The notes beneath the pieces are model-generated. The model was given only the letters and a program-made list of their open reading frames with translations, had not been told where the DNA came from and did not search any database. Of a DNA stretch of 64,000 nucleotides, positions 46,794-62,443 are shown one piece after another (positions within the stretch are counted from its first letter, which is position 1; each line of letters starts with the position of its first letter). Location: NCBI GenBank assembly GCA_030726915.1, contig JANRCR010000041.1, positions 4,262 through 68,261 on the forward strand, given 5' to 3'. Both the position numbers and the translations under genes were made by a program. This DNA is from Candidatus Nanopelagicales bacterium. GTDB lineage: Bacteria > Actinomycetota > Actinomycetes > S36-B12.

Positions 46794-47900
46794 CTAGCCG
46801 AGGCGCTTGCGAGCCATTTCGGTGCCTGCGGCCAGGGCGTGCAACTTATCAATAGCGATGTAGCGCTGAAGGAGAATGAGTCCACAGTCAGTGGTCACTC
46901 CGAGACGCTCCGGCGGGATGAACTCGGCCAGACGCATGATCCGATCACACACTTCTTCTGCGGTCTCGGTAATGGTCGACTTCACATCGATCACTCCGGC
47001 CCAGAAATTGACGTTGTCCGGAAGCGGGTTGCTCTTAATGATGTCCAAGCCCGACAGATCATCGCTTCGACGTCCGCAATTCTCGAGATTGAGTACGTCG
47101 ATGTTGGCCTCATACGACTTCGGGATGACCGACGCGGTCGCTGAGGGAGCTTCGCCCTTGCGCTGAGTGAGGTCAAAGATCTCGCCCGCATCAGCGGTCT
47201 CATCCGGGTAGTAGGCAGGGGTTCCACCCCAGTTGCCCCAGCACACATGGACGATGATCTGGGCGTTCTGGACCCCCTGGACGGCCCGATTGAATGCGTC
47301 AATCGCCCACTCCTCGTAGAAGTACGGCCAGGTGAACTCATCCAACTGAATGAAGTCGATGCCGAGGGCATCAACTTCAAGGATGTCCTCATTGATCGCT
47401 GCCGCCATCGCCATCGCCCGATCGCGGGGGTCCTCGTAGTAGAGGTCGTTGGTGCACTGGGCAAGCACCTGCACGCCGGTGTACTGGATCTTGGTGGGCT
47501 TATTGGTCGCGCGCTTGAGCGCCTTCGCCTGCTCCACCATGATGCTGCCCCGACGCTTGAGCTCCTGCGTTAAGGTGCCTGCGTGCAGCCGGCTGTAGAT
47601 CGGGAAGCCAAGGTAGCCACCCTTCAAGTCGTAGCCTAGGCGACGCATGTAGTAGTAGACGGCTGCGTCCGCGTAGTTGTCGCCGTGAAGCCGGCCGTCC
47701 GAGATGATGTCTAGCCCGGCGATCTCCTGATCCTTGGCGATAGCAGCGGTCGCGTCCTCGAATGCCTCGCGAACGAAAGCATCCGGGGGCTCCTGGTCCC
47801 CGTGCCAGTCGCGGGCTGGACCCGCGTCCCACCAGCGTGGGTTGGGGTAATTGCCGACCATCGAGGTCGGGATGAGGATTTCCTTGTCTCCGACGCGCAT
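46794..47900 (-). CDS. etnE: Epoxyalkane:coenzyme M transferase-like enzyme (MetE-C / cobalamin-independent methionine synthase fold, Zn)
   Basis: 368 aa. MetE-type zinc ligands in context IIVHVCWGN (His-x-Cys) and GVTTDCGL (Cys). It sits in an operon with hydroxyalkyl-CoM dehydrogenase-like SDRs, next to a CoM biosynthesis operon and a 2-KPCC-like gene. Family fold is confident; the EaCoMT function is inferred from context. Confidence 0.72.
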   Translation of the reverse strand: MRVGDKEILIPTSMVGNYPNPRWWDAGPARDWHGDQEPPDAFVREAFEDATAAIAKDQEIAGLDIISDGRLHGDNYADAAVYYYMRRLGYDLKGGYLGFPIYSRLHAGTLTQELKRRGSIMVEQAKALKRATNKPTKIQYTGVQVLAQCTNDLYYEDPRDRAMAMAAAINEDILEVDALGIDFIQLDEFTWPYFYEEWAIDAFNRAVQGVQNAQIIVHVCWGNWGGTPAYYPDETADAGEIFDLTQRKGEAPSATASVIPKSYEANIDVLNLENCGRRSDDLSGLDIIKSNPLPDNVNFWAGVIDVKSTITETAEEVCDRIMRLAEFIPPERLGVTTDCGLILLQRYIAIDKLHALAAGTEMARKRLG

Positions 47901-48110: not shown

Positions 48111-50204
48111 CTAGGACGTCCACGTCGCTCGAGCGTCAACAGCGACCACCCCGTGTCCTCCCACGATGACGGGATTGAGGTCGAGTTCAATGAGGTTCGG
48201 GTGTGCCATCAGAAGGTCACCGACCGCGCAGATAAGCGGCGCGACATCCCTCGCCTCAACAGGCGATTCGCCCCGGACCCCGGCGAGAAGCCCGGCCGCT
48301 CGAGAGCGCTCAACGAGGGCGACGGCTGCCGCTTCATCCAGGGGAGCTGGAGCAAAGCACACCTCCCCGATCGATTCAACGAAGACTCCGCCGAGCCCAA
48401 GAGCCACGACGGGCCCAAAAGTCGGCTCGCGGAGTCCTCCGATGACCAACTCGACACCCGTGACCTGCCGTTGGATCGCCACAAGCGCACCGTCCACAAG
48501 CGCGAGCAGATCAGTCGCGGCCTCCGCGACAGCATCGATCGAAGACAGGGACACGCGTACACCGCCGACATCGGTCTTGTGTGACAGGTCCTTATGATCC
48601 ACCTTGGCCACAACCGGGAAGCCAAGGGACAGGGCCGCCTCTTCCGCCTCTGGCACAGTCGCACAGAACCGCGTCTCCACAAAAGGAATACGGTGCTCGG
48701 CAAGGAGTGCCAGCAGCCCCTGTCCACCCTGCGCCGAGGTCGCCTCCCCTGCTTTGCCGCCTCCGGTCGACCTAGCCACACGGTCCGGCTCGGGACGAGG
48801 TGGGCCCGCGGCGCCGCGAGCACCGAGGACGCCCGCGTAGCGGACTGCATGCCCCACGGCTCGCGCTGTGCGCTCAGGCCACTCAAGACACGGGATGCCC
48901 GCTTCCTGCAGGAGTGCCGCCACGGGCCAGGCTGACCTCCGCGCCACCCAACAGCAGTAGACGGGCACACGCACACCATCTGCTCTCAGGCGGTGTACTG
49001 CGGCGATGATGGCCCGGGCAACGTCAGCGTTCTCCGCCGATCGATGCAGCAGCACAGGGATCACGACGTCGACCTCACCGGAGCGCGCCACTTCATCAAT
49101 CACGGCGGGATACATTTCTACGAATCGTGTCCAGGCCGGTGTCACATCGACAGGGTTAGCCGAACTGGCATAGGTGGGCAGGAGCGACTCAAGTCGTGCC
49201 CGTAAACCGGGAGAGAACGGGGGCACCACGATGTCCTCTACTGAGAGTAGGTCGGCCAGCTCAGTGCCGGTACCTCCAGAGTTGGTAATGATGGCTGCGC
49301 GTGCGCCGCGCGGCACAGGCTGCAAGGCGAGCGCCTTTGCTGCGTCGAGCATCTCCAGTCCCGACCGCGCGACTGTGATGCCAACGGCAGTCATCACGTC
49401 ATTCCATGCGCGACGCTCCGCGGCCAGCGCACCGGTGTGTGACGCCGCAGCGCGAGCACCGGCCTCCGAACGACCTACCGCCGCCACGATCAATGGCTTT
49501 GCAGGGGTGGTGCGCCGTGCCACGTCGAGCAGGAGTTCGCCGTCAGCAATCGACTCAGCAAAAAGACAGATCACCCGCGTGCGATCGTCGAGGCGGAGGT
49601 AGTCGATGACCTCGGAATCATCTACGTCGCACCGGTTTCCCGAGGAGTAGGCGACGGCGAAGCCAACCCCTTCGTCGTCCGACATGGCGTTGAGGGCCAT
49701 CGCGTAGGACCCAGATTGGGTGATGATGCTGATGCCGCCACCCCCACGCGCAGCCCCGGTGGAGAGAGAGGCATTGAGCGGGAGGTCGCAGTTCTGCACC
49801 CCCAAACAGTTGGGGCCGACAACAAGGAGGTCCGCCTCTCGCGCAGCGTCGGCAATCTGGGTCTGGAGCCTTTGCCCCTCAGGGCCGGTCTCGGCAAATC
49901 CACCGCTCACGATGACGCACGCTCGGACGCCTACGGCGACGGCGTCATCAATCACTCCGGGCACCTTCGCCGCCGGCACAGCGATCACCGCGAGATCGAT
50001 CGGACCGGGCACGTCCCGCAGTGTGGGGTAGGCCGTCACGCCGTTGATCTCGGTCGCCGACCGGCTCACAGGCACACTCTCGCCCGGGAACGACTCAAGG
50101 TTGCGCCAGAGCACCCAACCCGGCGATCCCTCCGTGTTGGAGGCGCCTACGACCGCCACTCGCTGGGGGTCGAGAATCGCCCACAGCGGACGGGACGCCC
50201 GCAT
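48111..50204 (-). CDS. ADP-forming acyl/acetyl-CoA synthetase (fused CoA-binding + ATP-grasp)
   Basis: 697 aa. RVAVVGASNTEGSPG CoA-binding start and a C-terminal ATP-grasp domain. Start overlaps the upstream stop (TGATG). Confidence 0.85.
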   Translation of the reverse strand: MRASRPLWAILDPQRVAVVGASNTEGSPGWVLWRNLESFPGESVPVSRSATEINGVTAYPTLRDVPGPIDLAVIAVPAAKVPGVIDDAVAVGVRACVIVSGGFAETGPEGQRLQTQIADAAREADLLVVGPNCLGVQNCDLPLNASLSTGAARGGGGISIITQSGSYAMALNAMSDDEGVGFAVAYSSGNRCDVDDSEVIDYLRLDDRTRVICLFAESIADGELLLDVARRTTPAKPLIVAAVGRSEAGARAAASHTGALAAERRAWNDVMTAVGITVARSGLEMLDAAKALALQPVPRGARAAIITNSGGTGTELADLLSVEDIVVPPFSPGLRARLESLLPTYASSANPVDVTPAWTRFVEMYPAVIDEVARSGEVDVVIPVLLHRSAENADVARAIIAAVHRLRADGVRVPVYCCWVARRSAWPVAALLQEAGIPCLEWPERTARAVGHAVRYAGVLGARGAAGPPRPEPDRVARSTGGGKAGEATSAQGGQGLLALLAEHRIPFVETRFCATVPEAEEAALSLGFPVVAKVDHKDLSHKTDVGGVRVSLSSIDAVAEAATDLLALVDGALVAIQRQVTGVELVIGGLREPTFGPVVALGLGGVFVESIGEVCFAPAPLDEAAAVALVERSRAAGLLAGVRGESPVEARDVAPLICAVGDLLMAHPNLIELDLNPVIVGGHGVVAVDARATWTS

Positions 50205-51019
50205 CAGTGGAGTGCCACCTCGAAGGTGCGCTGCAACTCGCCGGGGTCGAACTCCGATCGGCGCACACCCAGCGGGTCAATCGCGCGCACGGCAGCGAGT
50301 TCAGCAGGGCTGGGCGGCTCGACAGTTCCCAGGTCCGATGCCACCTCGAATTCGAAGCCGGTTGAGCTGCGTACGTCGTCCTCCGTCACATCAGGCCACA
50401 TCTCACGCAGGCGAGCAATGCCTGAGCCGTCATAATCGAAGATTCCCAATTCCGTGACCAGCCACTGCGGGCCGCCGCCCGAGTATCCGAGAGCCTTGCG
50501 ATCACCGGCCGGGGTGACGTGGCCAATATCGGTGATGAAGTCGCACGAAGACACCAGGGTCCGTCCTGAGCGGTGACGAGTAGTCCACAGGGTGAGTTGA
50601 CCGATCGTCGCTGAGATGTTGCAACCGCCGCCACCTCCGCCCAATTTGACCTTCGGTCGATCCAGCGGCCCGACAGCTGTGACATTGGTGTTGCCGTATC
50701 CATCGATCTGACCACCAGACAGGAACATACGATCCACATCCCCTCGGGACGCTGCATCAAAGAACTCTTCAAATCTCATGCTGTAGGCAGCGCCCTGCTT
50801 GAGACTGTTGTCGTTGCTTGTCGGGGGGATAAAGGGAGGATCCGGGTTGATCGCGTACATCGCACCCTCGATCAAGAGCATGTCGGGAGCGTGCGTTCGC
50901 CGCGCAACGTGCATCGCCACCTGCGCGCAGGGGCTGCCGAACCCATGGAAGACAACCTCCCGGTCACGGATCGTGCGAGCCAAGGCCACGACGAACCACT
51001 CATCAATGGTGTACGTCAT
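50204..51019 (-). CDS. Family I CoA-transferase, subunit B
   Basis: Start is MTYTIDEW (ATG 51019, ATGA overlap with subunit A). Resembles glutaconate/3-oxoacid CoA-transferase beta subunits. Confidence 0.8.
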   Translation of the reverse strand: MTYTIDEWFVVALARTIRDREVVFHGFGSPCAQVAMHVARRTHAPDMLLIEGAMYAINPDPPFIPPTSNDNSLKQGAAYSMRFEEFFDAASRGDVDRMFLSGGQIDGYGNTNVTAVGPLDRPKVKLGGGGGGCNISATIGQLTLWTTRHRSGRTLVSSCDFITDIGHVTPAGDRKALGYSGGGPQWLVTELGIFDYDGSGIARLREMWPDVTEDDVRSSTGFEFEVASDLGTVEPPSPAELAAVRAIDPLGVRRSEFDPGELQRTFEVALH

Positions 51020-51924
51020 GCGAAAAGCCCCTTCCACGCATCGACTGATTCACTCCAGGTAGTGAGGCGCTCAAGTTCTGCAGAGCCCTGCCGATCTCGA
51101 TAGCCCGCCTCGTCGGTGCTGCGCACCCACTCGTCCAGATAGGACTCAAGGGATTCCTGCGTCCCAGCAGCTCGGATGTAGGCACCCGTGGCCGAGCGGT
51201 CATAGGCATAGTGCGGGTAACTCGATGCCGGGTGAGCACCAAATGGCACTTCGGCAACGCCCCTCACCAAGTGGGCCGGGATGGTGATTCCGCGCTCGAC
51301 CAACTCCTCGGTCGCCACGATCTTGTCTACCGTAGCGACAACCGATCGCGCGGCACTCGCGAAGTGTTCATCGAGTACGTACGGCTGCTCCATGTAGAGG
51401 TTGCCCCGGGTGTCCCCGAGCGGCGCGTGCAGTAGCGCGACGTCCGGGCGCAGCGGTGGAACCACGACGAGCACCTCCCCCGTGAAGGGGCAGGTCATCT
51501 CGGCGTACTCGGGGTGGAGGCGCCGCATGTCCGTGCCCTTGATACCCCTAACTGGCAGGAAGGGGACCCCCATCTCCGCAGCACGCAACTGCGTCAGGAT
51601 GGTGACGCAGCAACTCTCCTTTACCTGGATCGTGCCACTCTCCGCGGCCCTTCTGTAGGCAGGCGCGAGCCCGAAGTCCTGCTCAAAGCCCACGTAACTC
51701 TCCTCGCAGACAGTTATTGCACCTGCCGCTACGAGCATGTCGACGTCCAGGCTGTGCGCCGAGCCGACCACGTGCAGGTTCCTGCGACCCTGACGAATCA
51801 TCTCGCGTATCAGAGCCATAGGCAGGCGCGCGGAGAGGCCACCACCTAGGGCGACGACGTCGCCATCAGCGACCATCCCAGCCGCCGTGGAGAGATCGAC
51901 TCGCTTATCGGGATCCAGAAACAT
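51016..51924 (-). CDS. Family I CoA-transferase, subunit A
   Basis: 302 aa. DGDVVALGG... N-terminus typical of CoA-transferase alpha subunits. Confidence 0.8.
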   Translation of the reverse strand: MFLDPDKRVDLSTAAGMVADGDVVALGGGLSARLPMALIREMIRQGRRNLHVVGSAHSLDVDMLVAAGAITVCEESYVGFEQDFGLAPAYRRAAESGTIQVKESCCVTILTQLRAAEMGVPFLPVRGIKGTDMRRLHPEYAEMTCPFTGEVLVVVPPLRPDVALLHAPLGDTRGNLYMEQPYVLDEHFASAARSVVATVDKIVATEELVERGITIPAHLVRGVAEVPFGAHPASSYPHYAYDRSATGAYIRAAGTQESLESYLDEWVRSTDEAGYRDRQGSAELERLTTWSESVDAWKGLFA

Positions 51925-51954: not shown

Positions 51955-52734
51955 CTAGATCGTCGTCATCCCGCCGTCAATGCTGAGCACCGATCCCGTG
52001 ACGAAGGCAGCCTCATCACTCGAGAGATAGAGCGCCGCCTTTGCTATGTCCACCACATCGCCAAGTCGACCAATCGGGTACTTCGCGATCGTTATCGCAA
52101 GACCCTTCTGCAGGTCGCCCCCACCGCGGGCGGTGAGCATCGGCTCCATGAGAGGCGTGTAGACGGTCCCCGGAGCGATCGCGTTTACCCGGATCCCACG
52201 GGGGGCAAGGTCAACAGACATCGACCGCGTAAGGCTCGCAACCGCACCCTTGGCAGCGCAATACGCCGCGAAGTTCGGGATACCCACGAGCGCCGCCACA
52301 GAGGCCTGATTGATGATGGATCCCTTGCTCGCCTGCATCATCGACGGAACGACTGCTCGCGAGCAGAGGTACGTGCCCTTCACGTTGATGTCAAAGCAGC
52401 GGTCCCAGTCGTCTTCCTCAGCCACGTCGACGGCGCCCGTGCTCCCAATCCCAGCATTGTTGTACAGCACAGAGATGTCGCCGAACTCCGCGATGACCGC
52501 CGTGACTGCAGCGCGAACCTGGGCATCAACAGTCACATCAGTCGTCAGTGCCATAGCTCGCTGACCGGCCGCACGAATGCCGTCACTCACCTCGGCCGCG
52601 GCATCACCGTTGACATCGAGCACCGCTACGGCTGCTCCCTCCCGCGCGAAAAGTTCCGCCGAAGCACGTCCGATTCCCGAACCCGCGCCCGTGATCACGG
52701 CCACCTTGCCCTCTAGCCTTCCCGGCATCATCAT
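51955..52734 (-). CDS. SDR dehydrogenase; candidate second hydroxyalkyl-CoM dehydrogenase
   Basis: 259 aa. TGAGSGIGRA, NNAG and YCAAK catalytic motif. Functional label comes from operon context only. Confidence 0.6.
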   Translation of the reverse strand: MMMPGRLEGKVAVITGAGSGIGRASAELFAREGAAVAVLDVNGDAAAEVSDGIRAAGQRAMALTTDVTVDAQVRAAVTAVIAEFGDISVLYNNAGIGSTGAVDVAEEDDWDRCFDINVKGTYLCSRAVVPSMMQASKGSIINQASVAALVGIPNFAAYCAAKGAVASLTRSMSVDLAPRGIRVNAIAPGTVYTPLMEPMLTARGGGDLQKGLAITIAKYPIGRLGDVVDIAKAALYLSSDEAAFVTGSVLSIDGGMTTI

Positions 52735-52789: not shown

Positions 52790-53533
52790 TCACCACGATG
52801 ACCACCCACCGTCGATCACGATCGCCGAGCCGTTGGCGTAGGCCATGCGCCCTGAGGCAAGCAGTGCGACGGTGTCCGCGACGTCCTCCGGTTGAGCCAC
52901 ACGTCCGATCGGGACCATCGCCTCGACCTTGGCGCGCAACTCGGGCTGGTCGAGGCGCCACTGCGTCATTGGGGTCTCGACCATGCCCGGGCAGATCGCA
53001 TTCGATCGGATTCCCAGGGGGCCATAGTCGACCGCCACCGAGCGGGCGAACATCAGAGCAGCGCCCTTTGAGGTCGTGTACGCGCAGCGCCCGGGAAAGG
53101 CAATAAGGCCCGCCACCGAGGCAATAGTGATGATCTGGCCACTGCCCGCGGCAATCATCGAGGGCAGCAGGGACCTCGTGCACAGGAAGGGGCCCCTTAC
53201 GTTGACAGCAATAACGCGGTCGAACTCGTCGATGGGCGTTTCTCCCGCGCTCGTCGCCTGCTGCGATCCCGTAATGCCGGCATTGTTCACAAGGACGTCG
53301 ACATGTCCCAACCTGTTGAGGATGCGGCCCATGACGTCCTGGACATCGTCGGGATCGGTGACGTCCAAGGCAAAGTGGTGCGGCGACAGAGATCGCACAG
53401 ACTCGACGTCCAGATCCGTTGCCACGACCTGCATCCCCTCGGAGATAAGTCGTCGAACGCTTGCGCTGCCGATACCACCGGCCGCGCCGGTTACGACGAC
53501 GACAGGTGACTGATCCTCACTGGTCACTGTCAA
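52790..53533 (-). CDS. xecD: SDR dehydrogenase resembling R-2-hydroxypropyl-CoM dehydrogenase
   Basis: 247 aa. TGAAGGIGSA, NNAGI, YTTSKGA, and the C-terminal stretch CPGMVETPMTQWRLDQPELRAKV. That stretch closely matches the substrate-binding region of Xanthobacter R-HPCDH as I remember it; needs alignment to confirm. Confidence 0.65.
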   Translation of the reverse strand: MTVTSEDQSPVVVVTGAAGGIGSASVRRLISEGMQVVATDLDVESVRSLSPHHFALDVTDPDDVQDVMGRILNRLGHVDVLVNNAGITGSQQATSAGETPIDEFDRVIAVNVRGPFLCTRSLLPSMIAAGSGQIITIASVAGLIAFPGRCAYTTSKGAALMFARSVAVDYGPLGIRSNAICPGMVETPMTQWRLDQPELRAKVEAMVPIGRVAQPEDVADTVALLASGRMAYANGSAIVIDGGWSSW

Positions 53534-54855
53534 CCCCTTCCCCGGGCCAACACAGCAGCCTGCGCCGCCTGGATGAGTGGGTCGTAGACCGGTGAGTACG
53601 GCGGAGCATAAGCAAGGTCTAGCTCCGCGATGTCGTCAACAGTCATACCTACCTGAAGGGCAGCCGCCACCACATTGATGCGTTGAGCTACCCCGTCCCT
53701 ACCTACCAGTTGGGCACCGATCACACGGCCGTCCGGCTTGTGAACCAGGCGCACGATGATCGGCTCGGCTCCCGGGTAGTACTTAGCGCGGGACTTTGCC
53801 GTCACCTGAGTCGCCTCCGCGCGCCATCCGCGCGCGCGCGCCTCCTCAAGCGTGACGCCCGTGTGCGCGACGGTGAGATCGAAGACCTTGACAACCGCGG
53901 TGCCGACGACGCCCGCAAAGGTGGCTTCGCCACCTCCGGCGACGGTGCCTGCGACCCGCCCGGTCTTATTGGCTGCGGGGCCGAGTGGCACGAAGGCGGG
54001 TTCCCCGAGGACTCGATGATGCACCGCGATGCAGTCACCAGCGGCATAGACGTCCTCGGCGGAGGTGCGCATCTGCTCGTCAACGATGAGGGCTCCGTTG
54101 GGGAGCGCTGCCAAGTCGGACACAAGACCCGTCGAGGGACTTACTCCGACCGCGAGCACGACCACGTCCGTCGGGATAGTGCCACCGTCGTACTCCACGT
54201 CAATGTGGGAGTCATGGGAATGCAACGCCCTGAGTTCGGCATCCAAAAGCAGCGTGCAGTGACGCTCGGTTTCGGTTTGGATGATAGCGGCCACATCGGG
54301 GTCGACAGTCGTCATCACGCGGGATAGCCGATCCATGACCGTGACGTCGAGACCACATGCATGCAGGGCCTCAGCCATTTCCAGTCCGACGTACCCGGCC
54401 CCCACGATGACCCCTCGGCGTGCGGTTCCGAGTCGTGCACGGAGCTCAATGGCATCCTCGAGTCGCCGAACAGTCATGACACGGGGATCGTCAACGCCGG
54501 GGATCGATGGCACGATTGGCTGTGCACCAGCCGCGTACACCAGGGCGTCGTAACCCCACTCGGCTCCATCGCTATCGACCACGAGGTGCGCTTCCAGGTC
54601 GACCGAAGTGATCACGCTGTCGAGCCGCAGGTCAATGCGTCTGCGCTCGCGAAACTCCGCCGCGGGATAGGCGATAAGGCTCTCGGGGTCAGAGATCACG
54701 CCACCGAGGTAGTAGGGGAGCCCACATACCCCGTAGGACGGAAAGGGGCCTTGCTCCCACACGGTCACCTCGGCGGTGCTATCCGCGCGGCGCGCCGCTG
54801 AAGCCGCCGACATCCCGGCGGCCCCGCCTCCGATCACCACGATTCGCCGGGGCAC
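53530..54855 (-). CDS. Single-cysteine FAD/NAD(P)H disulfide oxidoreductase (CoA-disulfide reductase / NADH oxidase family)
   Basis: 441 aa, GTG start after GGAGGTG. VVIGGGAAGMSAA FAD fold, single redox Cys context SYGVCGLPYY, second Rossmann VIVGAGYVGLEMAE. 4-nt overlap with the downstream SDR. Confidence 0.8.
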   Translation of the reverse strand: MPRRIVVIGGGAAGMSAASAARRADSTAEVTVWEQGPFPSYGVCGLPYYLGGVISDPESLIAYPAAEFRERRRIDLRLDSVITSVDLEAHLVVDSDGAEWGYDALVYAAGAQPIVPSIPGVDDPRVMTVRRLEDAIELRARLGTARRGVIVGAGYVGLEMAEALHACGLDVTVMDRLSRVMTTVDPDVAAIIQTETERHCTLLLDAELRALHSHDSHIDVEYDGGTIPTDVVVLAVGVSPSTGLVSDLAALPNGALIVDEQMRTSAEDVYAAGDCIAVHHRVLGEPAFVPLGPAANKTGRVAGTVAGGGEATFAGVVGTAVVKVFDLTVAHTGVTLEEARARGWRAEATQVTAKSRAKYYPGAEPIIVRLVHKPDGRVIGAQLVGRDGVAQRINVVAAALQVGMTVDDIAELDLAYAPPYSPVYDPLIQAAQAAVLARGRG

Positions 54856-55087
54856 GCCACCTCCAAAGCCTTGAACGACCGCCCATCAGGGCGATCGTCT
54901 TGACCCTCCCAGGGGGAAGGTGGGAACTCTATGACCGCTTGGGGCTAAGTTCCACGGTTTCTTCGGCCCTTCAGGACGGCACAATCGGTTGTCAGCTCGC
55001 CTAATATTCTCGACACACCGCATGTTGTCGCCTCATAAAGGGGACAACCGTGTACCCAAAGCCAAAGAAGGGGCGAACGACGTGCAG

Positions 55088-55879
55088 ATGTGGGAGCAGC
55101 CTCAGTTCCTTGACCTGCCGTCTCGTGACGCCAAGCCCCGTCGGCGCGGACTCACGCATGTCCTCGACAAGGGTCTCGATCTTGCGCGAACGGAGGCTTT
55201 TGTCGGCCAGTGCGCGCATCTCGTTGACATCGTGAAGATTGGCTGGGGCATCGGCTACGTCGACTCGACATTGCCGGCGCGCATTCGCGTCTATCGCGAG
55301 GCCGACGTCAGCGTCAGCCTCGGCGGAACGCTAGTGGAAGTCTGTGCGATGCAAGATCGCGTCCTGGAACTGCGTGACTGGGCACTGTCCCTGGGGGTCA
55401 CTGTGATGGAGGTATCCAACGGACTTCACCTCCTCGACCCGCAATCCAAGTCTGCGCTCATCCGCCTACTGAGCGAGGACTTCACCGTCGCGGCCGAGGT
55501 CGGAGACAAGGATCCGTCCCTTCCTGTAGTCGCTGACAAGTGGATTGAGGAAATGGAGCGTGATCTCGAGGCGGGCGCCACCTGGCTGGTCGCCGAAGGA
55601 CGCGAGTCAGGCACCGTCGGTATCTACTCAGCAGACGGTGGCGTGCGCGCCGATCTCGTGGAGAGCCTTGCGGACCGCATCACACTGGAACGAATCATTT
55701 TTGAGGCACCACTCAAGGCCCAGCAGACGTGGTTCATCGAACGTGGAGGCCCACAGGTCAACCTCGGCAACATCGCCCCTGAGGACGTGCTGCCGCTGGA
55801 GACTCTCCGCCTGGGGCTGCGGGCGGATACGGCAGTCTCCGTCGCCGCAATGATCACTCCCGAACGCGCCCTTCAGTGA
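55088..55879 (+). CDS. comA: (2R)-phospho-3-sulfolactate synthase (ComA / XcbA)
   Basis: KPRRRGLTHVLDKGL, DIVKIGWG, GGTLVE, EGRESG, IFEAPLKAQQTWFI and VNLGNI...LETLRLGLRADT are collinear with archaeal ComA. Start is ATG 55088 (alternative GTG 55082). Confidence 0.9.
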   Translation: MWEQPQFLDLPSRDAKPRRRGLTHVLDKGLDLARTEAFVGQCAHLVDIVKIGWGIGYVDSTLPARIRVYREADVSVSLGGTLVEVCAMQDRVLELRDWALSLGVTVMEVSNGLHLLDPQSKSALIRLLSEDFTVAAEVGDKDPSLPVVADKWIEEMERDLEAGATWLVAEGRESGTVGIYSADGGVRADLVESLADRITLERIIFEAPLKAQQTWFIERGGPQVNLGNIAPEDVLPLETLRLGLRADTAVSVAAMITPERALQ

Positions 55880-55891
55880 GAGGATGTGCGC

Positions 55892-56836
55892 ATGTCCCAC
55901 CGAGACGCGATCCAGCTACCTGAGCCCAACACGCTCACGCGTCCCTATCGCGGACTCTCGGTGCAGGAAGTGGATTTCGATCTGAGCAGTGAGCAGCGCA
56001 TTCTGGATTACATTCTCGGCCGGGAGGTCTACCGCCGGACCGAGTGGTTACTCCTGTCCAACCTCGATGCCCGAGCTCTCATCGAAGTGCGCAAGGAATC
56101 CTTTGACCCACTCTTCTCACCCGTAGTCACCGCGCGAGTACTTGCACTACCTGACAAGGTCGTATGGATCGAAGATCCTGACACCGACGTGGGCAATCCG
56201 ACACAACTCGCCATGACTGCCCTACGGCATGAGCGGGAAGGCGCAGATGCCTATGCCGTCCAAGGCAAGTTCGAGCACATCAATGTCATCTGGAGACCCC
56301 AGCCCGTGCGGGTTGTCGTTACTGAGGTCATCCCGCCAACGCCTGCCAAACTGCTCGAACTCGCCAAGACCGCGGTGGGATTCGACGAGGATCTCCCCCC
56401 TCTCGACCTCGTGCTTGACGCCGTCGATATACGCACGATGGCCGCAGACAACCCCTCGGATACATACCTGCTGCCCTGCCGCGGATCGGGAGTGGACCTG
56501 CCCGGCGAAGTCACATTCCTCGACACGCGCCCGGAGGAACGCCGGGACTGGACCCTGATTGGATGCGAGCGGTCAGTGCAGTTCCATCGTCACTTCTACG
56601 GCGACGAGCCAACCCAGGTCGACTTCTGCCCCAACCACCGGTCGGCCACTCTGGCGGAGGACACCCTTGTGCTCACCAAGTGCTGCCTACTCGAACGTGG
56701 TGTCGAGGTCCGTGGCAATACCGCCATCGTGCCGTGGGGGTCCAATCTTGACGAGGTGCGCCTCGCACTGCGGCTCATCACTGGCGTGGGGCCGTTACCC
56801 GAGCCGAAGCAGATCGGGTCTGCCCTGACCCCATGA
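55892..56836 (+). CDS. xcbB: XcbB-position protein, Cys-rich C-terminus, function unassigned here
   Basis: 314 aa, ATG 55892 after GAGAGGA. C-terminal cysteines LPCRGSG, LIGCERS, DFCPNH and TKCCLLE. It occupies the second slot of the comA-led operon. Confidence 0.5.
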   Translation: MSHRDAIQLPEPNTLTRPYRGLSVQEVDFDLSSEQRILDYILGREVYRRTEWLLLSNLDARALIEVRKESFDPLFSPVVTARVLALPDKVVWIEDPDTDVGNPTQLAMTALRHEREGADAYAVQGKFEHINVIWRPQPVRVVVTEVIPPTPAKLLELAKTAVGFDEDLPPLDLVLDAVDIRTMAADNPSDTYLLPCRGSGVDLPGEVTFLDTRPEERRDWTLIGCERSVQFHRHFYGDEPTQVDFCPNHRSATLAEDTLVLTKCCLLERGVEVRGNTAIVPWGSNLDEVRLALRLITGVGPLPEPKQIGSALTP

Positions 56837-58191
56837 GCGCCCACCTGAGCGACTCCGCGATCTACGGGCATCTGTGGGGTACTGACGAGACTCGCGCGAT
56901 GCTGTGCGACGAGGGGCGCCTGCGCTCGTGGCTCGACCTGCTCGCCTGCCTCGCTGAGGCACAGGCCGAGGTGGGCCTGGTACCCGCGGATGCAGCCCGG
57001 TCAATAACGGCCTCGGTGCACGACTGGATCCCCGACATCGCGGAGGTCGGACGTCTCACCCGAGAGACCGGACACTCAACACTTGGCTTGATCCGCTGCA
57101 TGCAGGAACGTTTGCCTGAGCACGCCCGAGAGTGGGTCTACTACGGAGCCACGGTGCAAGATCTGAGCGACACCTGGGCCGTCCTCGTCATGAGGCGCAT
57201 GACCAATATCGTCCTGCGGGACCTCCGCGTAGCCCGGAGCGCAGCGGCCGACCTCGCGCGGGTGCATCGAGCGACGATCATGTGCGGGCGCACGCACGGT
57301 CAGCCGGGTCTACCCATCACTTTCGGATTCAAGGCTGCGGTATGGGCGGATGAGATCGACCGCCATATCGGACGGATCGAGCACTCCCGAGAGGCCAGGG
57401 AGGTCATCCAACTCGGCGGTGGGCTTGGTTCCATGGAGTTCTGGGGTGAGGCTGCCGAGCCGATGGCAAGGGCCTTCGCCCGACGTCTAGACCTCGGCGT
57501 GCCCGTCATACCGTGGCTCACGTCCCGCGATCGCTTCGCCGAGTTCGTCACCCAGATGGCGATGATCGCCGCGACAATCGCCAAGATCGGCGACGAGGTC
57601 TTCGAACTCCAAAGAGCCGAGATCGGGGAGCTCCGCGAGCCGCTCTCCCCCGGCACAGTTGGAAGTATCACTATGCCGCACAAGCGCAATCCTGAGTGGT
57701 CCGAGCACGTGAGTTCGCTCGCGCGGCTCGTTCGAGTCAATGCCGATCTCGCCATCGAGGGGATGATCCACGGGCACGAGCGAGACGGCCGGGCTTGGAA
57801 GACAGAGTGGGTCGTTCTGCAGGAGACATGTCACTTCACCGCGACGAGCACAATGGCGGTGACGCGCATTCTTGACGGACTGGAGGTCAACGTTGCGCGC
57901 ATGCAGGCGAATCTCGACGCCCAACGTGGTTACGTACTCAGTGAGCCAGTCATGCGAGCGCTATCTGATCGAATGGGCAAGCACACAGCTCACCAGGTCG
58001 TCTACGAGGCCACGCTCTCGGGGGGTGAGCGCGGAGTAGACATGCGCACGGCCCTACGCGACGACCCGCGCCTTGCGGATATCCCCGATGCCGAACTCGA
58101 TGCCCTTCTCGATCCATCGCGAGCCCTGGGCTCCATATCCCGTTTCGTAGATGACGTCCTAGCTCGACTAGGAGACTCCACGGATGCCTAA
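56833..58191 (+). CDS. xcbC: Aspartase/fumarase-superfamily lyase (adenylosuccinate-lyase-like), XcbC-like
   Basis: 452 aa, ATGA overlap with the upstream gene. Superfamily signature loop GSITMPHKRNP. Confidence 0.7.
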   Translation: MSAHLSDSAIYGHLWGTDETRAMLCDEGRLRSWLDLLACLAEAQAEVGLVPADAARSITASVHDWIPDIAEVGRLTRETGHSTLGLIRCMQERLPEHAREWVYYGATVQDLSDTWAVLVMRRMTNIVLRDLRVARSAAADLARVHRATIMCGRTHGQPGLPITFGFKAAVWADEIDRHIGRIEHSREAREVIQLGGGLGSMEFWGEAAEPMARAFARRLDLGVPVIPWLTSRDRFAEFVTQMAMIAATIAKIGDEVFELQRAEIGELREPLSPGTVGSITMPHKRNPEWSEHVSSLARLVRVNADLAIEGMIHGHERDGRAWKTEWVVLQETCHFTATSTMAVTRILDGLEVNVARMQANLDAQRGYVLSEPVMRALSDRMGKHTAHQVVYEATLSGGERGVDMRTALRDDPRLADIPDAELDALLDPSRALGSISRFVDDVLARLGDSTDA

Positions 58192-59173
58192 GCCCCCGTG
58201 GGTCACACGCCTGGGGACAGTTCCACGGGAGCCCCTCGCCTCGCTCCCGAGCCCGCTACAACCAGCCCCGCGACTCTCTGACGCCCTTGGCATCGAAATA
58301 TGGGTCAAGCGCGATGACCTACTCGGTCTAGGTCTTGGCGGTAACAAGGCACGTCCGCTCGAGTTCCTCATGGGCGATGCGCTTGTCAAGAACAGCGACG
58401 TTATTGTCACGGGGTCGGGCCCGCAGTCAAACTGGTCCATGCTCGCTGCCCTGGCGGCACGCCGGTGCGGACTTGACTCAATCGTCTGCTTCTACGGTGA
58501 CCGTCCACGGGAGTCCCGCGGCAATCTCCTCCTCCACGGACTTATCGGCACTGACGTTCGCTGGACCAGTGAGTCGACGCGAGAGTCCGTCGACACGATG
58601 ATCGGCTCGGTGGCCGAGAGCCTCCGACAAGACGGCAAGCACCCCTACGTCATACCCCGTGGGGGGGCGACGCCCCGAGGCAGCCTGGGTTACCTCGTGG
58701 GAGCTGAGGAGATCTCGAGCCAGTGCAGGGACGCCGGTCTCCACAACGCGACCGTCTGGCTTGCTACCGGCTCTTGCGGCACCCAGGCCGGGCTCGTCAC
58801 AGGCGTGGCCGCCGGCCTTCTGTCCGCCGTCGTGGGCGTGACGGTCAGCAGACCCGTCGAGGAGTGCCGATCTCGCGTGCTTGAGATCGCGCAAGCTGCT
58901 GCAGTACTCGCGGGCACGACGCCAGCGACAGCAAACATCGTCACGGTGCTCGATGGCTACATCGGCGGGGGGTACGGCGTACCTACCGCCGAAGGTGCAG
59001 CCGCCGCCGCCCTGGTTCTGAGCACCGAGGGGATCTTCCTCGACCCACCATTCTGCGCGAAGGGAATGGCCAGCCTCGTCGATGCTGCCGCTCAGGGAAG
59101 CATCGCGGGCCCTGTGATCTTCCTCGTGTCCGGCGGTGCGCCCACTCTCTTCGTGGAGGATGGGGCGTTGTGA
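58184..59173 (+). CDS. xcbD: PLP fold-type II enzyme of the ACC-deaminase/D-cysteine-desulfhydrase family, XcbD-like
   Basis: 329 aa. PLP-lysine motif GGNKARPLEF. It lacks the AcdS-diagnostic YEGKS and AHLGG contexts, having FCAKG and LVSGG instead. Confidence 0.7.
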   Translation: MPKPPWVTRLGTVPREPLASLPSPLQPAPRLSDALGIEIWVKRDDLLGLGLGGNKARPLEFLMGDALVKNSDVIVTGSGPQSNWSMLAALAARRCGLDSIVCFYGDRPRESRGNLLLHGLIGTDVRWTSESTRESVDTMIGSVAESLRQDGKHPYVIPRGGATPRGSLGYLVGAEEISSQCRDAGLHNATVWLATGSCGTQAGLVTGVAAGLLSAVVGVTVSRPVEECRSRVLEIAQAAAVLAGTTPATANIVTVLDGYIGGGYGVPTAEGAAAAALVLSTEGIFLDPPFCAKGMASLVDAAAQGSIAGPVIFLVSGGAPTLFVEDGAL

Positions 59174-60684
59174 CCATTCAGCCTCCCACCGGGTACCTCG
59201 GCACCGACGGCCGGATCAGCTCAGGTCCAGCACCCGAGCTCGTCGCAGCCGGGTACGCACTGGAAATCTCTGACGCGCCGGCACTCCATGACGGGCTTCT
59301 CATTGCTGATCTCGCTCATGTCATCGGACTTCTCGACAGCGGCCTCATCGACACCGACATCGCGGGCCGACTTCTGCGCGCGCTGCTAGACATGGGGGAT
59401 ATCCCCGCGGAAGACTTCCCCTACGACGTGACCCTCGGGGATGCCTACAACAGCCGGGAGCGCGAACTCGAGCGCCGGATAGGCACTATGTCCGGCGTCA
59501 TCCACCTCGGACGCACCCGACGCGAAGCGGGGCGAATCGCGTTCCGGCTTGCATTGCGGGAGCGACTGGAAGCGTTGGCGCTTGCTGTCGCGCGGCTGAC
59601 ACGGACGCTGGGTGACCGCGCTGAGGATTGGTCCGACACGGTCTGGGCGGATGTCACCTACTTGCAGCTCGCTCAGCCATCCACCTTCGGTCACTACCTG
59701 GCCGCCTTTGCGGAGGAATCCGCCCGTCACCTGCCCCGGTTGCGTGCCGCCCACGGCTGGGCTGACGTGTCCCCTGCTGGATCCGGCGGCGTCGCGGGCA
59801 CGCGCATGGGCATGGATAGACAAGGCCTTGCGCAGATCCTCGGATTCACAACTGTCGGCCGCAACACCCGCGACACCATGTGGACCATCGATGGACTCCT
59901 CGACGCGATGGCGGCAGCAACTCAGACAGCCATTACGTGCAGCCGCCTGGCAGAGGATCTGCAGATCTTCGCGAGTGCTGGCTTCGGGATCGTCACCGTC
60001 GATGCGTCCCTATGCCGAGCATCAGTCCTCATGCCGCAGAAGCGCAACCCTTACGCTCTTTCCGTCATTCGAGCTGGGGCAAGCACGCTTATTGGTCGAC
60101 TCACCGGGACAGCCTCGACGGCACGCACACCATCCGCAGCCACCGACAACTGGCTGCATTCCTACGGCGAGGTACTTTCGTCTCTGGAATTGTCCACCCG
60201 GCTCGTCGACCTGACCGATGCCGTGGTGCGCACGCTGTCGATCGACTCCGAGCGGATGCTCGTGAGCGCTGCAGACCAGCAAGCCATCGCCACAGATCTC
60301 GCGGACGAACTCGTCCTCACCACCGGCATGGACTACCGCAGTGCTTACCGTGTCGTCGGGCGCGCTGTCGCGGCCGCGCTGGAATCCGGCTCCATCATCA
60401 GCCCGGAGTCACTGGACGCAGCATGCCGAGAGGTCACAGGAGACGCACTCCCCAACTCATCGGAAGCGATCAACTGGGCCTCTCTACGTGACCCCCGGCA
60501 ACTCGTGGCTACGCGTACGGAAACCGGCGGGTGCGGTCGCGACAGCCTTGCTGCCGAACTGGCCTCGCTGCGCGACATCGTCGACGAGCAGCAGGGGTGG
60601 TTTGAGGCACGGCGCGCCCACGAGCAAGAGTGCCTCGGTGCGCTGCGCACACGCGCAAACAATCTAGCTACCCCCTCGATCTAG
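59170..60684 (+). CDS. xcbE: Aspartase/fumarase-superfamily lyase (argininosuccinate-lyase-like), XcbE-like
   Basis: 504 aa, GTGA overlap with the upstream gene. Signature loop ASVLMPQKRNP. Confidence 0.7.
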   Translation: MTIQPPTGYLGTDGRISSGPAPELVAAGYALEISDAPALHDGLLIADLAHVIGLLDSGLIDTDIAGRLLRALLDMGDIPAEDFPYDVTLGDAYNSRERELERRIGTMSGVIHLGRTRREAGRIAFRLALRERLEALALAVARLTRTLGDRAEDWSDTVWADVTYLQLAQPSTFGHYLAAFAEESARHLPRLRAAHGWADVSPAGSGGVAGTRMGMDRQGLAQILGFTTVGRNTRDTMWTIDGLLDAMAAATQTAITCSRLAEDLQIFASAGFGIVTVDASLCRASVLMPQKRNPYALSVIRAGASTLIGRLTGTASTARTPSAATDNWLHSYGEVLSSLELSTRLVDLTDAVVRTLSIDSERMLVSAADQQAIATDLADELVLTTGMDYRSAYRVVGRAVAAALESGSIISPESLDAACREVTGDALPNSSEAINWASLRDPRQLVATRTETGGCGRDSLAAELASLRDIVDEQQGWFEARRAHEQECLGALRTRANNLATPSI

Positions 60685-62261
60685 AGGGACTCCAATTGCA
60701 TCGCTCCCGCGCGCAGGCGTGAGAGTTGAATGAAGTGCGAGGGATTGAGAAAGAGTTCGTTCATTTCAGCAAGTTGGTCAATCGTCACGCCCACCTTGTG
60801 GATGAGGAAATCGAGGTACTGGAAGCCGTCCTTCGCCCCATATCCCACATGGTGGGCCCCCACCAGGCGGCGACTCTTGGAGTCAAAAACGGCCTTCTGG
60901 AAGCCCGACAGTTCCGGATGGGTGAAGGCGAAGAGCATCGTGCCGTCGGAGCACGGCAGCGGGATGTCACCGTAAGGAACGCCCGGCGGGGGCATCTGGA
61001 TCACAATGACATCGCCGTACTCTTCGCGTGCCTCACGTTCGGATAATCCGACCCAGGTCACCTCGTACGTCGAGTGGAGGAAGTCGGGGTACTCGCTGAA
61101 GTCAAAGGAGTAGTCCTCACCCATGATGTTGCGGGCTGCGGTCATCCCGCACTTGCGTGCCTTAAACATCTCCATCGGGGCACCAATGAGATCTCCCACA
61201 GCGTAGACGCCCGGGACTGATGTGCGCATGTGGTCGTCGACGATCACGGCCCCTCGGTCATCCACCGAGACTCCCAGCGCTTTCACGAAGGGGTCGGAGT
61301 TAGGGCGTTCGCCCGTGCCCACGAAAACCATGTCGCAGGGGATATCCCGGACGGATCCATCAGCCATGCGCACGCGTACGCCTGTCGCTCGCTCATCACC
61401 AAGGATCTCCAGGGTCTCCGTGCCGTCGAAGATTTGTATGCCACGTCGACGCATTCCGTCCACAACGTACTCACGTAGATCATCATCGATGTGGTGGAGG
61501 CCCGAGCCCTGCATCAGTGGGCTTCTCGCGAGGATCGTTGTCTGGCAGCCCGCAGCCTGGAAGAAGGATCCGTACTCGATCGCCACCTTCGACCCACCGA
61601 TAATGACGCAGGAGCGCGGGTTGTAATCAAGGTCCTCGACCAGCGTTGCATAGTCGAAGACACCAGCCTTATCGATCCCCGGCACGTCAGGGAACACCGT
61701 GGCCGATCCGGTTGCCAGGACGAGGTTCTTGGCCGTAAAGATCTCCCCCTCGACTTCGACGGTATGCGCATCGATGACACTCGCGGTGGCATTGAGGATG
61801 TACTCCATTCCGAGCTGCTCCTTGCTTTGCCAATTCATGAAGGAGTGCGCGGAATTCCGGCCCGAGACGAAGAGTTGCACCATGTCAAGGACGGATGCCT
61901 TGGACTCGTCGAACTCCGGGTACCAGAAGCGTCCCGATAACGTGCGAGCGAGATCGAGTTCGCGTGCCGCCTCCGAGAAGAGGTGGTGAGGGACGCAGGC
62001 CTGGTGGGGACAAGACCCCCCGAGGAAGGGCCATTGGTCGATGGTCAACTGTCGACCGCCGCGGGCACGCATGAAGGCAGACCCGAAGCGACCTCCAGCC
62101 CCTCCGCCGACGAAGATGGCGTCGAACTCGCGGTCATCGCTTCGGTCGAGGTTGTAGATCGCACCCTGGCGCCTACCATCCTCGAACTCATCGATGAGCG
62201 TCCGCCACTCGGCGTTTGTAGGGTGCTCGTCGCGAACGTCCATATAGGTCTCCGAGTCCAT
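60681..62261 (-). CDS. xecC: NADPH:2-ketopropyl-CoM oxidoreductase/carboxylase (2-KPCC)-like disulfide oxidoreductase
   Basis: Start is ATG 62261 after AGGAGG (526 aa). FAD fold FVGGGAGGRFGS and redox disulfide GGSCPHQACVPHH. The usual C-terminal His-Glu dyad region (HPxxxE) is replaced by FLNPSHF, i.e. Phe...His at i/i+5, the substitution described for 2-KPCC. Confidence 0.78.
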   Translation of the reverse strand: MDSETYMDVRDEHPTNAEWRTLIDEFEDGRRQGAIYNLDRSDDREFDAIFVGGGAGGRFGSAFMRARGGRQLTIDQWPFLGGSCPHQACVPHHLFSEAARELDLARTLSGRFWYPEFDESKASVLDMVQLFVSGRNSAHSFMNWQSKEQLGMEYILNATASVIDAHTVEVEGEIFTAKNLVLATGSATVFPDVPGIDKAGVFDYATLVEDLDYNPRSCVIIGGSKVAIEYGSFFQAAGCQTTILARSPLMQGSGLHHIDDDLREYVVDGMRRRGIQIFDGTETLEILGDERATGVRVRMADGSVRDIPCDMVFVGTGERPNSDPFVKALGVSVDDRGAVIVDDHMRTSVPGVYAVGDLIGAPMEMFKARKCGMTAARNIMGEDYSFDFSEYPDFLHSTYEVTWVGLSEREAREEYGDVIVIQMPPPGVPYGDIPLPCSDGTMLFAFTHPELSGFQKAVFDSKSRRLVGAHHVGYGAKDGFQYLDFLIHKVGVTIDQLAEMNELFLNPSHFIQLSRLRAGAMQLESL

Positions 62262-62311: not shown

Positions 62312-62443
62312 GGGCCGCAACTGAGGCATGACTGTGCCGCATTGCCTGCGACCGGGGCCATGACCCAGCGGGACAGTGTTCTCCGATTCCTTTGTCCATC
62401 CGGGCCGATCCGAACTTCCCTGAATTCGTGCAGGCTTGGTCCC

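Follow-up and report, generated by a model that had tools for sequence, protein, structure and literature searches.

The window examined here, a stretch of 64,000 nucleotides (nt) from contig JANRCR010000041.1 of a Candidatus Nanopelagicales bacterium, carries a cluster of genes for the coenzyme M (CoM)-dependent metabolism of epoxides, and the catabolic operon of this cluster opens with a gene for a single-cysteine flavoprotein of the coenzyme A (CoA)-disulfide reductase (CoADR) family. We found that this flavoprotein belongs to an actinobacterial clade that occurs exclusively with CoM genes, that it carries residues specific to that clade, and that its gene is transcribed in situ in lakes. 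From its sequence and its genomic surroundings, we tentatively propose that it may reduce the homodisulfide of CoM or its mixed disulfides with other thiols, as an initial annotation of the same DNA had suggested.

The question is of practical relevance. Aerobic bacteria that use CoM to metabolise epoxides (from ethene, propene or vinyl chloride) must keep their CoM reduced, and no bacterial enzyme is known to do so. The clade described here is a defined and easily expressed candidate, conserved in bioremediation strains, where the clusters are on plasmids, as well as in actinobacteria that are widespread in lakes. The gene as such is not a new sighting, since relatives in Mycobacterium chubuense NBB4, Nocardioides JS614 and Methylohalobius have been published as 'CoADR' or 'oxidoreductase' (PMC8727900, PMC11197473, PMC11507031). 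What is new is the CoM-exclusive actinobacterial clade, the recruitment of relatives in other lineages and the finding that all the CoM-linked copies place a cationic residue above their redox cysteine, to which we can add the narrow-channel residues of the actinobacterial clade and the transcription of the gene in lakes.

A single-cysteine flavoprotein of the CoADR branch

The flavoprotein gene starts with a GTG, which is the most upstream start possible, and a GGAGG Shine-Dalgarno sequence is found 4 nt before it. The alignment of the protein with solved enzymes of the CoADR type (6ruz, E 6.5e-99, as well as 6pfz and 4fx9) covers its full length, which makes this open reading frame a genuine gene and not a product of chance. 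Three Pfam domains are recognised, namely Pyr_redox_2 (E 3.5e-54), Pyr_redox (2.9e-20) and Pyr_redox_dim (7.9e-19), with the flavin adenine dinucleotide (FAD) site at G9-G14, the NAD(P)H site at G152-G157 and the dimerisation domain at residues 320-422. The redox motif S40-Y-G-V-C44-G-L-P-Y-Y49 is present. The protein contains four cysteines (44, 167, 200 and 275), of which only Cys44 is invariant among 15 relatives of 57-100% identity, and its sequence does not contain any CXXXXC pair. The initial annotation, which had described a single-Cys (SYGVCGLPYY) FAD/NAD(P)H oxidoreductase, was right on this point.

The closest solved relative is the Thermus thermophilus protein 6ruz/6rvb (335 bits, 45% identity over 433 residues), and the identity is 43% to the Archaeoglobus Npsr and 40% to the Pyrococcus CoADR. 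The best NCBIfam models are the CoADR equivalogs (TIGR03385 / NF007123), all with scores under the cut-off: 404.8 bits for a cut-off of 578.8 in the case of TIGR03385, and 366.6 (cut-off 458) and 236.3 (cut-off 394) for the other CoADR equivalogs. Membership of the NADH oxidases or NADH peroxidases, which have a Cys-sulfenic acid as redox centre and lack a CoA site, was considered and rejected, NOXase_Strep scoring 222.6 bits for a cut-off of 600 and the Nox and Npx structures ranking far under the CoADRs. The protein is not an Npsr or a CoAPR either, because it lacks their C-terminal rhodanese domain, which bears a second catalytic Cys: it ends at residue 441, after the dimerisation domain, and no rhodanese match was obtained. 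Its domain architecture, its length of about 440 residues and its single redox Cys motif are those of the group-3 flavoprotein disulfide reductases, in which this Cys is expected near residue 42-48 within S-x-x-x-C-(G/A)-(L/I/M)-P-Y. Given the scores below the cut-offs and the absence of rhodanese, we place it in the CoADR branch of this group, where it is the equivalog of no characterised enzyme. Its relatives go by the name 'CoA-dependent NAD(P)H sulfur oxidoreductase' at the Joint Genome Institute, and the same protein is found on contigs of many lake and other water metagenomes. The window also encodes another Pyr_redox_2 flavoprotein (24072-25298, 408 residues), which has no dimerisation domain, stands beside a thiamine-pyrophosphate enzyme gene and is unrelated to the CoM cluster.

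An actinobacterial clade confined to CoM gene clusters

The co-occurrence of the flavoprotein with CoM genes was followed in genomes (one genome per species, at least 80 loci, each searched with 14 proteins of the window's cluster), in metagenomes through a scan anchored on XcbA (at least 80 loci) and among 72,556 plasmids. The genome and metagenome samples are biased towards XcbA of the actinobacterial types; etn strains already on record came in through the plasmid search only. Among the genome matches listed, six loci have a flavoprotein of 52% identity or more to that of the window, and CoM genes were found in all six, which belong to metagenome-assembled genomes (MAGs) of Streptosporangiaceae, Pseudonocardiales and Kineosporiaceae. 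Among the 74 listed at 48% identity or less, they were found in two methanotroph loci (36-37%) and, in part, in one myxobacterial locus. The plasmid matches are led by two plasmids of NBB4 (54% and 51%), followed by pNOCA01 of JS614 (48%); all three share the synteny of the window, and they are the only plasmid matches above 45% identity. As for the XcbA-anchored loci that carry the CoA-transferase A gene and have room upstream of it, the flavoprotein gene is immediately upstream in 24 of the 26 among the matches listed.

The initial annotation had proposed to look at co-occurrence, and held that orthologues common in genomes without CoM genes and absent from other CoM clusters would speak against a link to CoM. 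The reverse was found: among the matches listed, orthologues were seen only in CoM clusters, and in nearly all those that carry the CoA-transferase module with room upstream. A more distant homologue without CoM context (41% identity) is encoded by the Rhodococcus qingshengii plasmid pCP2 (locus L172, 6911-8296), with a glucose-6-phosphate dehydrogenase gene on one side and a heavy-metal regulator on the other; it adjoins merA and merB and shows the wider family in a setting of stress and thiol redox.

The phylogeny agrees with this distribution. In a neighbour-joining tree of 112 sequences, a method that is crude on deep branches, 33 actinobacterial CoM-linked proteins form one clade with a bootstrap of 100/100, which takes in no protein of non-CoM context. 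The window flavoprotein is a member of this clade on every mark that we used to delimit it: it groups with the NBB4 and JS614 proteins, it is encoded beside xcb and CoA-transferase genes, and it carries the signature A20, Y63, P64, A277, T298, K358, H372. The methanotroph and Xanthobacter Py2 proteins group together (62/100) and never join the actinobacterial clade (0/100), and the myxobacterial CoM-linked protein is placed elsewhere, apart from both groups. Because these proteobacterial and myxobacterial lineages never group with the actinobacterial one, either the recruitment of the family to CoM clusters was repeated or the split is very old. Taken at face value, the tree suggests that CoADR-family enzymes were recruited into CoM clusters more than once.

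Clade-specific residues and proposed mechanism

We considered as clade-specific those residues that reach a conservation of 90% or more within the actinobacterial clade and are seldom seen outside it. Position 20, which is R, K or Q in 60 of the 71 other relatives, is an invariant Ala in the CoM clade. Positions 63-64 are Tyr-Pro where the other relatives have Arg-Thr, position 277 is Ala for Glu, position 298 is Thr for Gln (Q or H), positions 304-305 are Thr-Val for Glu-Asn and position 424 is Tyr for Trp. The clade has Lys at position 358, which is mostly G, A or H in the other relatives, and His at position 372, which is mostly G, A, F or V. At position 358, a basic residue is present in the CoM-linked copies beyond Actinobacteria too: all 33 actinobacterial copies have Lys, and the myxobacterial copy has Arg, as does each of the three from Proteobacteria.

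The motifs Y359-Y360-P-G and A-Y416-A-P-P are kept in the flavoprotein, as is the pair Arg22-Arg23 of helix alpha-1. These may be among the residues that contact CoA in the CoA-disulfide reductases, where, judging in part from the Staphylococcus aureus structure, basic residues of helix alpha-1 and residues of the partner subunit hold the 3'-phospho-ADP part of CoA and a conserved Tyr pair is found near the Cys; positions 20 and 298, by contrast, have departed from the residues of the relatives, as given above. The end of the second Rossmann strand is acidic (Asp175 in the window protein, Glu in the clade consensus), at the position of Glu183 of the Archaeoglobus AfNpsr, which is held responsible for its NADH specificity, and Asp175 thus suggests the use of NADH.

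Position 358 aligns with His367 of the Pyrococcus horikoshii CoADR, a residue of the channel surface described as lying 'directly above the catalytic cysteine' (PMC6026696). A cationic residue above the redox Cys in every CoM-linked lineage fits the binding of the CoM sulfonate, although it does not separate the hypotheses weighed below, because any CoM-containing substrate would suit it equally. In addition, Tyr63, Pro64 and Arg72 align with Tyr66, Pro67 and Arg75 of the Pyrococcus enzyme, which narrow its CoA cleft and were linked by the authors to its poor use of the bulky CoA disulfide (PMC6026696). Together with Lys or Arg at position 358, these three residues would fit a small anionic sulfur substrate.

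The flavoprotein may thus be pictured as a homodimeric, single-Cys and probably NADH-dependent enzyme of the CoADR/polysulfide-reductase type, specialised for the CoM pool of the epoxide pathway. Following the cycle of its family, NADH would reduce FAD, and the reduced FAD would open a mixed disulfide on Cys44, which would be Cys44-S-S-CoM, or Cys44-S-S-CoA if a bound CoA is retained as co-catalyst. The Cys44 thiolate would attack CoM-S-S-CoM, or a mixed disulfide of CoM with CoA, mycothiol or a protein, and CoM-SH would be released. Lys358 of the partner subunit, positioned over Cys44, would hold the sulfonate together with Arg72, and Tyr63 and Pro64 would narrow the channel against the bulky CoA disulfide.

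The catabolic operon and its neighbourhood

The flavoprotein gene is the first of the minus-strand catabolic operon, as stated in the initial annotation, and it is divergent from the CoM biosynthesis genes, from which it is separated by a short promoter region in front of comA (Table 1). Each of the four Xanthobacter pathway enzymes has its own separate gene in the cluster, so the flavoprotein is extra to this pathway, and here too the initial annotation was correct. A reductase/carboxylase role like that of 2-KPCC (2-ketopropyl-CoM oxidoreductase/carboxylase) was rejected, given that a true 2-KPCC orthologue is separately encoded and that the flavoprotein has no CXXXXC pair.

Table 1. Location of the flavoprotein gene and of the surrounding features in the window
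Feature	Positions	Strand	Remarks
MetE-like epoxyalkane:CoM transferase, XecA type	46794..47900	minus	76% identity to Xanthobacter Py2 XecA
ADP-forming acyl-CoA synthetase (acetate--CoA ligase family)	48111..50204	minus	
CoA-transferase subunit B-like	50204..51037	minus	Pfam CoA_trans
CoA-transferase subunit A-like	51016..51924	minus	Pfam CoA_trans
Short-chain dehydrogenase/reductase (SDR) 2, S-hydroxypropyl-CoM dehydrogenase-like	51955..52734	minus	best PDB match 4gh5, 204 bits
SDR 1, R-hydroxypropyl-CoM dehydrogenase-like	52790..53527	minus	best PDB match 2cfc, 234 bits
CoADR-family single-Cys flavoprotein	53530..54855	minus	441 residues; Pfam, PDB alignment
Divergent promoter region, flavoprotein/comA	54856..54988		133 nt
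Phosphosulfolactate synthase (ComA/XcbB), first gene of divergent CoM biosynthesis operon	54989..55879	plus	
XcbA	55886..56836	plus	above NCBIfam cut-off
xcbD, xcbE, xcbC (CoM biosynthesis)	56833..60684	plus	XcbD above NCBIfam cut-off
2-KPCC orthologue	60681..62261	minus	607 bits to 1mo9; CPHQAC redox pair and FLNPSHF segment
SauS-like acylating aldehyde dehydrogenase	62444..63871	plus	553 bits for a cut-off of 600

The gene that follows the flavoprotein is the SDR that the initial annotation had likened to R-hydroxypropyl-CoM dehydrogenase, and its best structural match bears this out. The same annotation had the two genes translationally coupled through a 4-nt overlap. They are certainly tightly juxtaposed, and they are found on one transcript; the overlap itself (TTGA) exists only if SDR 1 starts at TTG 53533. 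The gene callers on six public contigs use GTG 53527 instead, leaving a gap of 2 nt, and a purine-rich GAAGGGG is located 6 nt before this GTG and 0 nt before the TTG. The gap is of 3 nt in NBB4 and of 138 nt in JS614, so that the overlap is not conserved.

Two of the other starts deserve a comment. The longest open reading frame of the 2-KPCC orthologue extends to 62399 and would give 572 residues; its start is probably near 62261, because the similarity to 2-KPCC begins at residue 54 and the gene callers give 526 residues. The longest frame of the aldehyde dehydrogenase begins at 62342, and the gene callers start it at 62444. Genes for regulators of the MEDS and CdaR-like types are located just beyond the end of the window.

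The cluster is flanked by genes that are unremarkable in a cell, for K+ and sugar transporters, an NAD(P) transhydrogenase and peptidoglycan enzymes, and no soluble di-iron or alkene monooxygenase was found in the whole 64-kb window. The cluster looks like an 'orphan' epoxide pathway such as that of Methylohalobius crimeensis. A megablast of the 14-kb cluster gave no match among the PLSDB plasmids, which means that the window is not a known plasmid and that the plasmids had to be searched at the protein level.

The transferase of the window is 80-96% identical to the metagenome copies of some loci, and only 46-47% to EtnE of JS614 and to those of many soil loci; XecA-type and EtnE-type transferases both accompany the same flavoprotein clade. 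In several actinobacterial CoM clusters, a second and distant MetE-like gene (26-30% identity to the window transferase) is found near the flavoprotein gene, at L009 6544-7581, L020 8821-9849, L011 343-1407 and L008 4435-5472.

Promoter region and expression

The expression of the catabolic operon has been studied in NBB4, where Petn, a promoter inducible by ethylene oxide and dependent on EtnR1/EtnR2, was mapped experimentally; it is located in the divergent region, directly upstream of what is called the 'oxidoreductase gene MYCCH_RS29030' (PMC11197473). This gene is the orthologue of the window flavoprotein gene, and its position was confirmed by our plasmid search. The corresponding region of the window contains an 18-nt palindrome, TCAGGGCGATCGTCTTGA, at 54886-54903, together with short blocks (cATGaCC, AAGT, TTCGGCC and GGAC) that recur in the orthologous divergent regions of Actinobacteria. 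The palindrome and these blocks are candidate binding sites for regulators of the EtnR1/EtnR2 type. A consensus promoter scan of the divergent region (54856-54988) revealed no sigma-70-like hexamers.

Transcription in the environment was observed in four lake metatranscriptomes: most of the cluster, the flavoprotein gene included, is covered by contigs that match the window at 95-99% identity, and one such contig spans the junction between the flavoprotein and the SDR. The depth of such contigs reflects expression poorly, and a carry-over of DNA is possible in such data. In none of the four runs do the contigs cover positions 59823-62226, which correspond to the 3' part of xcbC and to all of the 2-KPCC gene; this gap may come from a lack of transcription, from a divergence of more than 5% or from the absence of the region in that population.

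Which reaction does the flavoprotein catalyse?

Among the functions that can be considered, we tentatively favour the reduction of CoM homo- or mixed disulfides, to which we give a little less than even confidence on the basis of sequence comparisons. It is favoured because it is the family's own chemistry and because it accounts for both the CoM-confined clade and the repeated recruitment; it also matches the precedent of the isoprene degraders presented below and leaves the cleavage of the C-S bond to the 2-KPCC orthologue. Several observations weigh against it. The flavoprotein gene tracks the CoA-transferase/acyl-CoA synthetase module as closely as it tracks CoM. Two loci, L133 and L149, have the CoA-transferase operon without the flavoprotein gene, whose position in L149 is taken by a MEDS-like gene, and the canonical xecA-xecC-SDR-SDR-xcbABCDE cluster of Xanthobacter Py2 does not contain it. 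A second Py2 cluster, 15 kb off, which encodes SDRs, a CoA-transferase, xcbA, comA, xcbC, xcbD and an acyl-CoA synthetase, has the CoADR-like Xaut_5065 at its end. In the loci that carry xcb genes only (L163, L166 and a Methylocystis plasmid), no close homologue was found within 10 kb. At the level of residues, Lys or Arg at position 358 is also present in 9 of the 71 other relatives (13%), and the Arg22-Arg23 pair of helix alpha-1, typical of the CoA-binding members, is kept and would also suit a CoA-containing substrate. Moreover, substrate specificity is hard to predict from sequence in this family (PMC6026696), and the M. crimeensis homologue is one of only two proteins of its cluster that are not raised by ethylene (PMC11507031). 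The proposal of the initial annotation, a CoM (mixed-)disulfide reductase, thus draws support from the co-occurrence and from the active-site features, and is weakened by the equally tight link to the CoA-transferase and acyl-CoA synthetase genes and by the canonical Xanthobacter xec/xcb cluster.

This last link can be given a catabolic meaning, in which the flavoprotein would be a thioether reductase that cleaves a CoM-acyl-CoA thioether in the last step of the ethene/vinyl chloride pathway. The SauS-like dehydrogenase or the CoA-transferase would make CoM-S-CH2-CO-SCoA, the thioester of S-carboxymethyl-CoM, which would be bound via the CoA cleft; Cys44 would attack the thioether sulfur, like Cys82 of 2-KPCC, to give the acetyl-CoA enolate, and FADH2 would then reduce Cys44-S-S-CoM to CoM. 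We consider this route unlikely, and we would be rather surprised if the flavoprotein were indeed a second, independently evolved C-S lyase of CoM metabolism yielding acetyl-CoA and CoM; were it true, the long-missing final step of the aerobic ethene/vinyl chloride/epoxyethane route would be found and a pathway of practical importance completed. 2-KPCC shows that its superfamily can evolve thioether cleavage, yet we know of no member of the CoADR/Nox group that cleaves a thioether, and the 2-KPCC orthologue, conserved in the same clusters, could perform the C-S cleavage itself. The place of the gene suits a catabolic function: it heads the catabolic operon and not the biosynthetic one, directly upstream of the SDR, CoA-transferase and acyl-CoA synthetase genes in the 24 listed loci mentioned above, it adjoins the SauS-like dehydrogenase gene in the Streptosporangiaceae MAGs, in a myxobacterium and in M. 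crimeensis, and of the two Py2 clusters it is the one with CoA-transferase and acyl-CoA synthetase that has it, and the CoA-independent propylene cluster that lacks it. On the other hand, the four Xanthobacter enzymes are present, so the CoA-transferase would more simply serve to activate the 3-oxoacid product, and the M. crimeensis homologue is not induced alongside the catabolic enzymes. The residues are divided in the same way, in that the family binds CoA, Arg22-Arg23 are kept and a cation at position 358 would suit the sulfonate equally, but position 20, which is R, K or Q in CoA-binding relatives, is the invariant Ala of the clade. The downstream ethene pathway, for its part, has been described as uncharacterised (PMC11197473), which leaves room for such a step.

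The flavoprotein may otherwise serve biosynthesis, as an electron donor that would pass NAD(P)H electrons to XcbA for the conversion of sulfoethanethioaldehyde to CoM, either by reducing a cysteine or mixed disulfide of XcbA or by regenerating the thiol that XcbA consumes. Its gene divergently adjoins comA-xcbA in Actinobacteria, and in methanotrophs, as in the second Py2 cluster, it stands directly downstream of the xcb genes; the XcbA homologues have five invariant Cys, including the adjacent pair Cys266-Cys267. We nevertheless hold this role to be very improbable: to our knowledge, single-Cys enzymes of the CoADR type do not reduce proteins or Fe-S clusters, and neither the functionally validated xcbABCDE operon of Py2 nor the xcb-only loci (within 10 kb) have such a gene. 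What speaks for it is that XcbA, a [2Fe-2S] thioaldehyde reductase, has no identified physiological reductant, that a cysteine thiol works in vitro and that a mixed-disulfide route has been proposed (PMC9457059). Finally, the enzyme could have an ordinary function of its family without any specificity for CoM, as a CoA-disulfide reductase, a CoA-persulfide/polysulfide reductase or an NADH oxidase, and protect the CoA pool or remove oxidants during the metabolism of epoxides and aldehydes by CoA-dependent enzymes, three of which are encoded in the operon. The top NCBIfam and PDB matches are indeed CoADRs, the relatives are named sulfur oxidoreductases, the narrow-channel residues are like those of the Pyrococcus enzyme, which prefers per- and polysulfides, and a plasmid homologue without CoM context is found in a mercury/stress locus. 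This generic function seems improbable to us all the same, since the scores are well under the equivalog cut-offs for both TIGR03385 and Nox, the rhodanese domain of Npsr and CoAPR is absent, and neither the CoM-confined clade nor the repeated recruitment of copies with a cation over the Cys would be explained by it.

Comparison with known systems

The members of the clade closest to published work are MYCCH_RS26695 and MYCCH_RS29030 of M. chubuense NBB4 and NOCA_RS00550 of Nocardioides JS614, which are 48-57% identical to the window protein. Their synteny is like that of the window, in the order comA <-> flavoprotein-SDR-CoA-transferase-acyl-CoA synthetase(-etnE), with the flavoprotein first in the catabolic operon. 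The difference is in the context: these copies are plasmid-borne and located beside the etnABCD monooxygenase genes, whereas that of the window belongs to the MAG of an aquatic actinobacterium, where it is accompanied by an XecA-type transferase and, over the 64 kb, by no monooxygenase. The NBB4 gene was called an oxidoreductase and the downstream pathway 'thus-far uncharacterised' (PMC11197473), and a comparative map of vinyl chloride clusters draws the gene as 'CoADR', with the guess of a 'reductive decarboxylase' (PMC8727900). We set aside this last role, proposed for malonyl-CoA, as decarboxylation has no support in the chemistry of the family.

The two best structural references share the active-site frame of the flavoprotein and differ in the residues that define the clade. 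The Thermus protein 6ruz/6rvb was deposited as an 'NADH oxidase'; in a survey of proteins modified by CoA, it is presented as a CoA-disulfide reductase that depends on NADH and carries CoA on its Cys (PMC9312308). It shares three motifs with the flavoprotein (SYGxCGLPY, YYPG and AYAPP), and its NADH site likewise has an acidic residue, but the Ala, Tyr-Pro, Ala, Thr and Lys of the CoM clade correspond in it to Lys20, Arg-Thr at 63-64, Glu277, His298 and His358, and it is not found in a CoM context. The P. horikoshii CoADR/polysulfide reductase (4fx9) shares the channel-narrowing residues and the 'PAxNK' loop; unlike the flavoprotein, to which it is 40% identical, it has His367 instead of Lys, prefers NADPH and is an archaeal enzyme of sulfur metabolism. 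As for 2-KPCC, it acts in the same pathway, belongs to the same superfamily of FAD/NAD(P)H disulfide oxidoreductases and forms a Cys-S-S-CoM intermediate; it is a class I enzyme that has a CXXXXC redox pair and in which a Phe-His dyad replaces His-Glu, whereas the flavoprotein has one Cys and is of another subfamily.

With regard to the reaction that we favour, the reduction of CoM disulfides, our literature searches retrieved no paper in which a CoM-disulfide reductase of bacteria is proposed or tested, in agreement with the initial annotation, which knew of none. The only such activity on record, as far as it is reported in PMC7278568, belongs to a purified enzyme of Methanobacterium thermoautotrophicum (Smith and Rouviere 1990). 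This NAD(P)H:CoM-disulfide (2,2'-dithiodiethanesulfonate) reductase carries out the same reaction as that proposed here; it is archaeal and known as a purified protein, with no gene to compare. A bacterial parallel can be found in the isoprene degraders. In the isoprene clusters of Gram-negative bacteria, garB is strongly induced and dispensable (PMC9804861, PMC4676930), and in Rhodococcus AD45 an isoprene-induced 'CoA-disulfide reductase', SZ00_06098, is encoded between gshA and gshB, for which the authors suggest the reduction of glutathione disulfide (PMC4676930, PMC9804861). As in the window, GarB of Variovorax and SZ00_06098 of AD45 are flavoprotein disulfide reductases encoded inside a thiol-dependent epoxide cluster, beside the genes for the biosynthesis of the cofactor, which they have been suggested to recycle, the differences being that this cofactor is glutathione and not CoM, and that GarB is a class-I glutathione reductase. 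If the flavoprotein does reduce CoM disulfides, CoM would be a new low-molecular-weight thiol served by a dedicated flavoprotein reductase, in parallel with the 'CoA-disulfide reductase' of the isoprene degraders.

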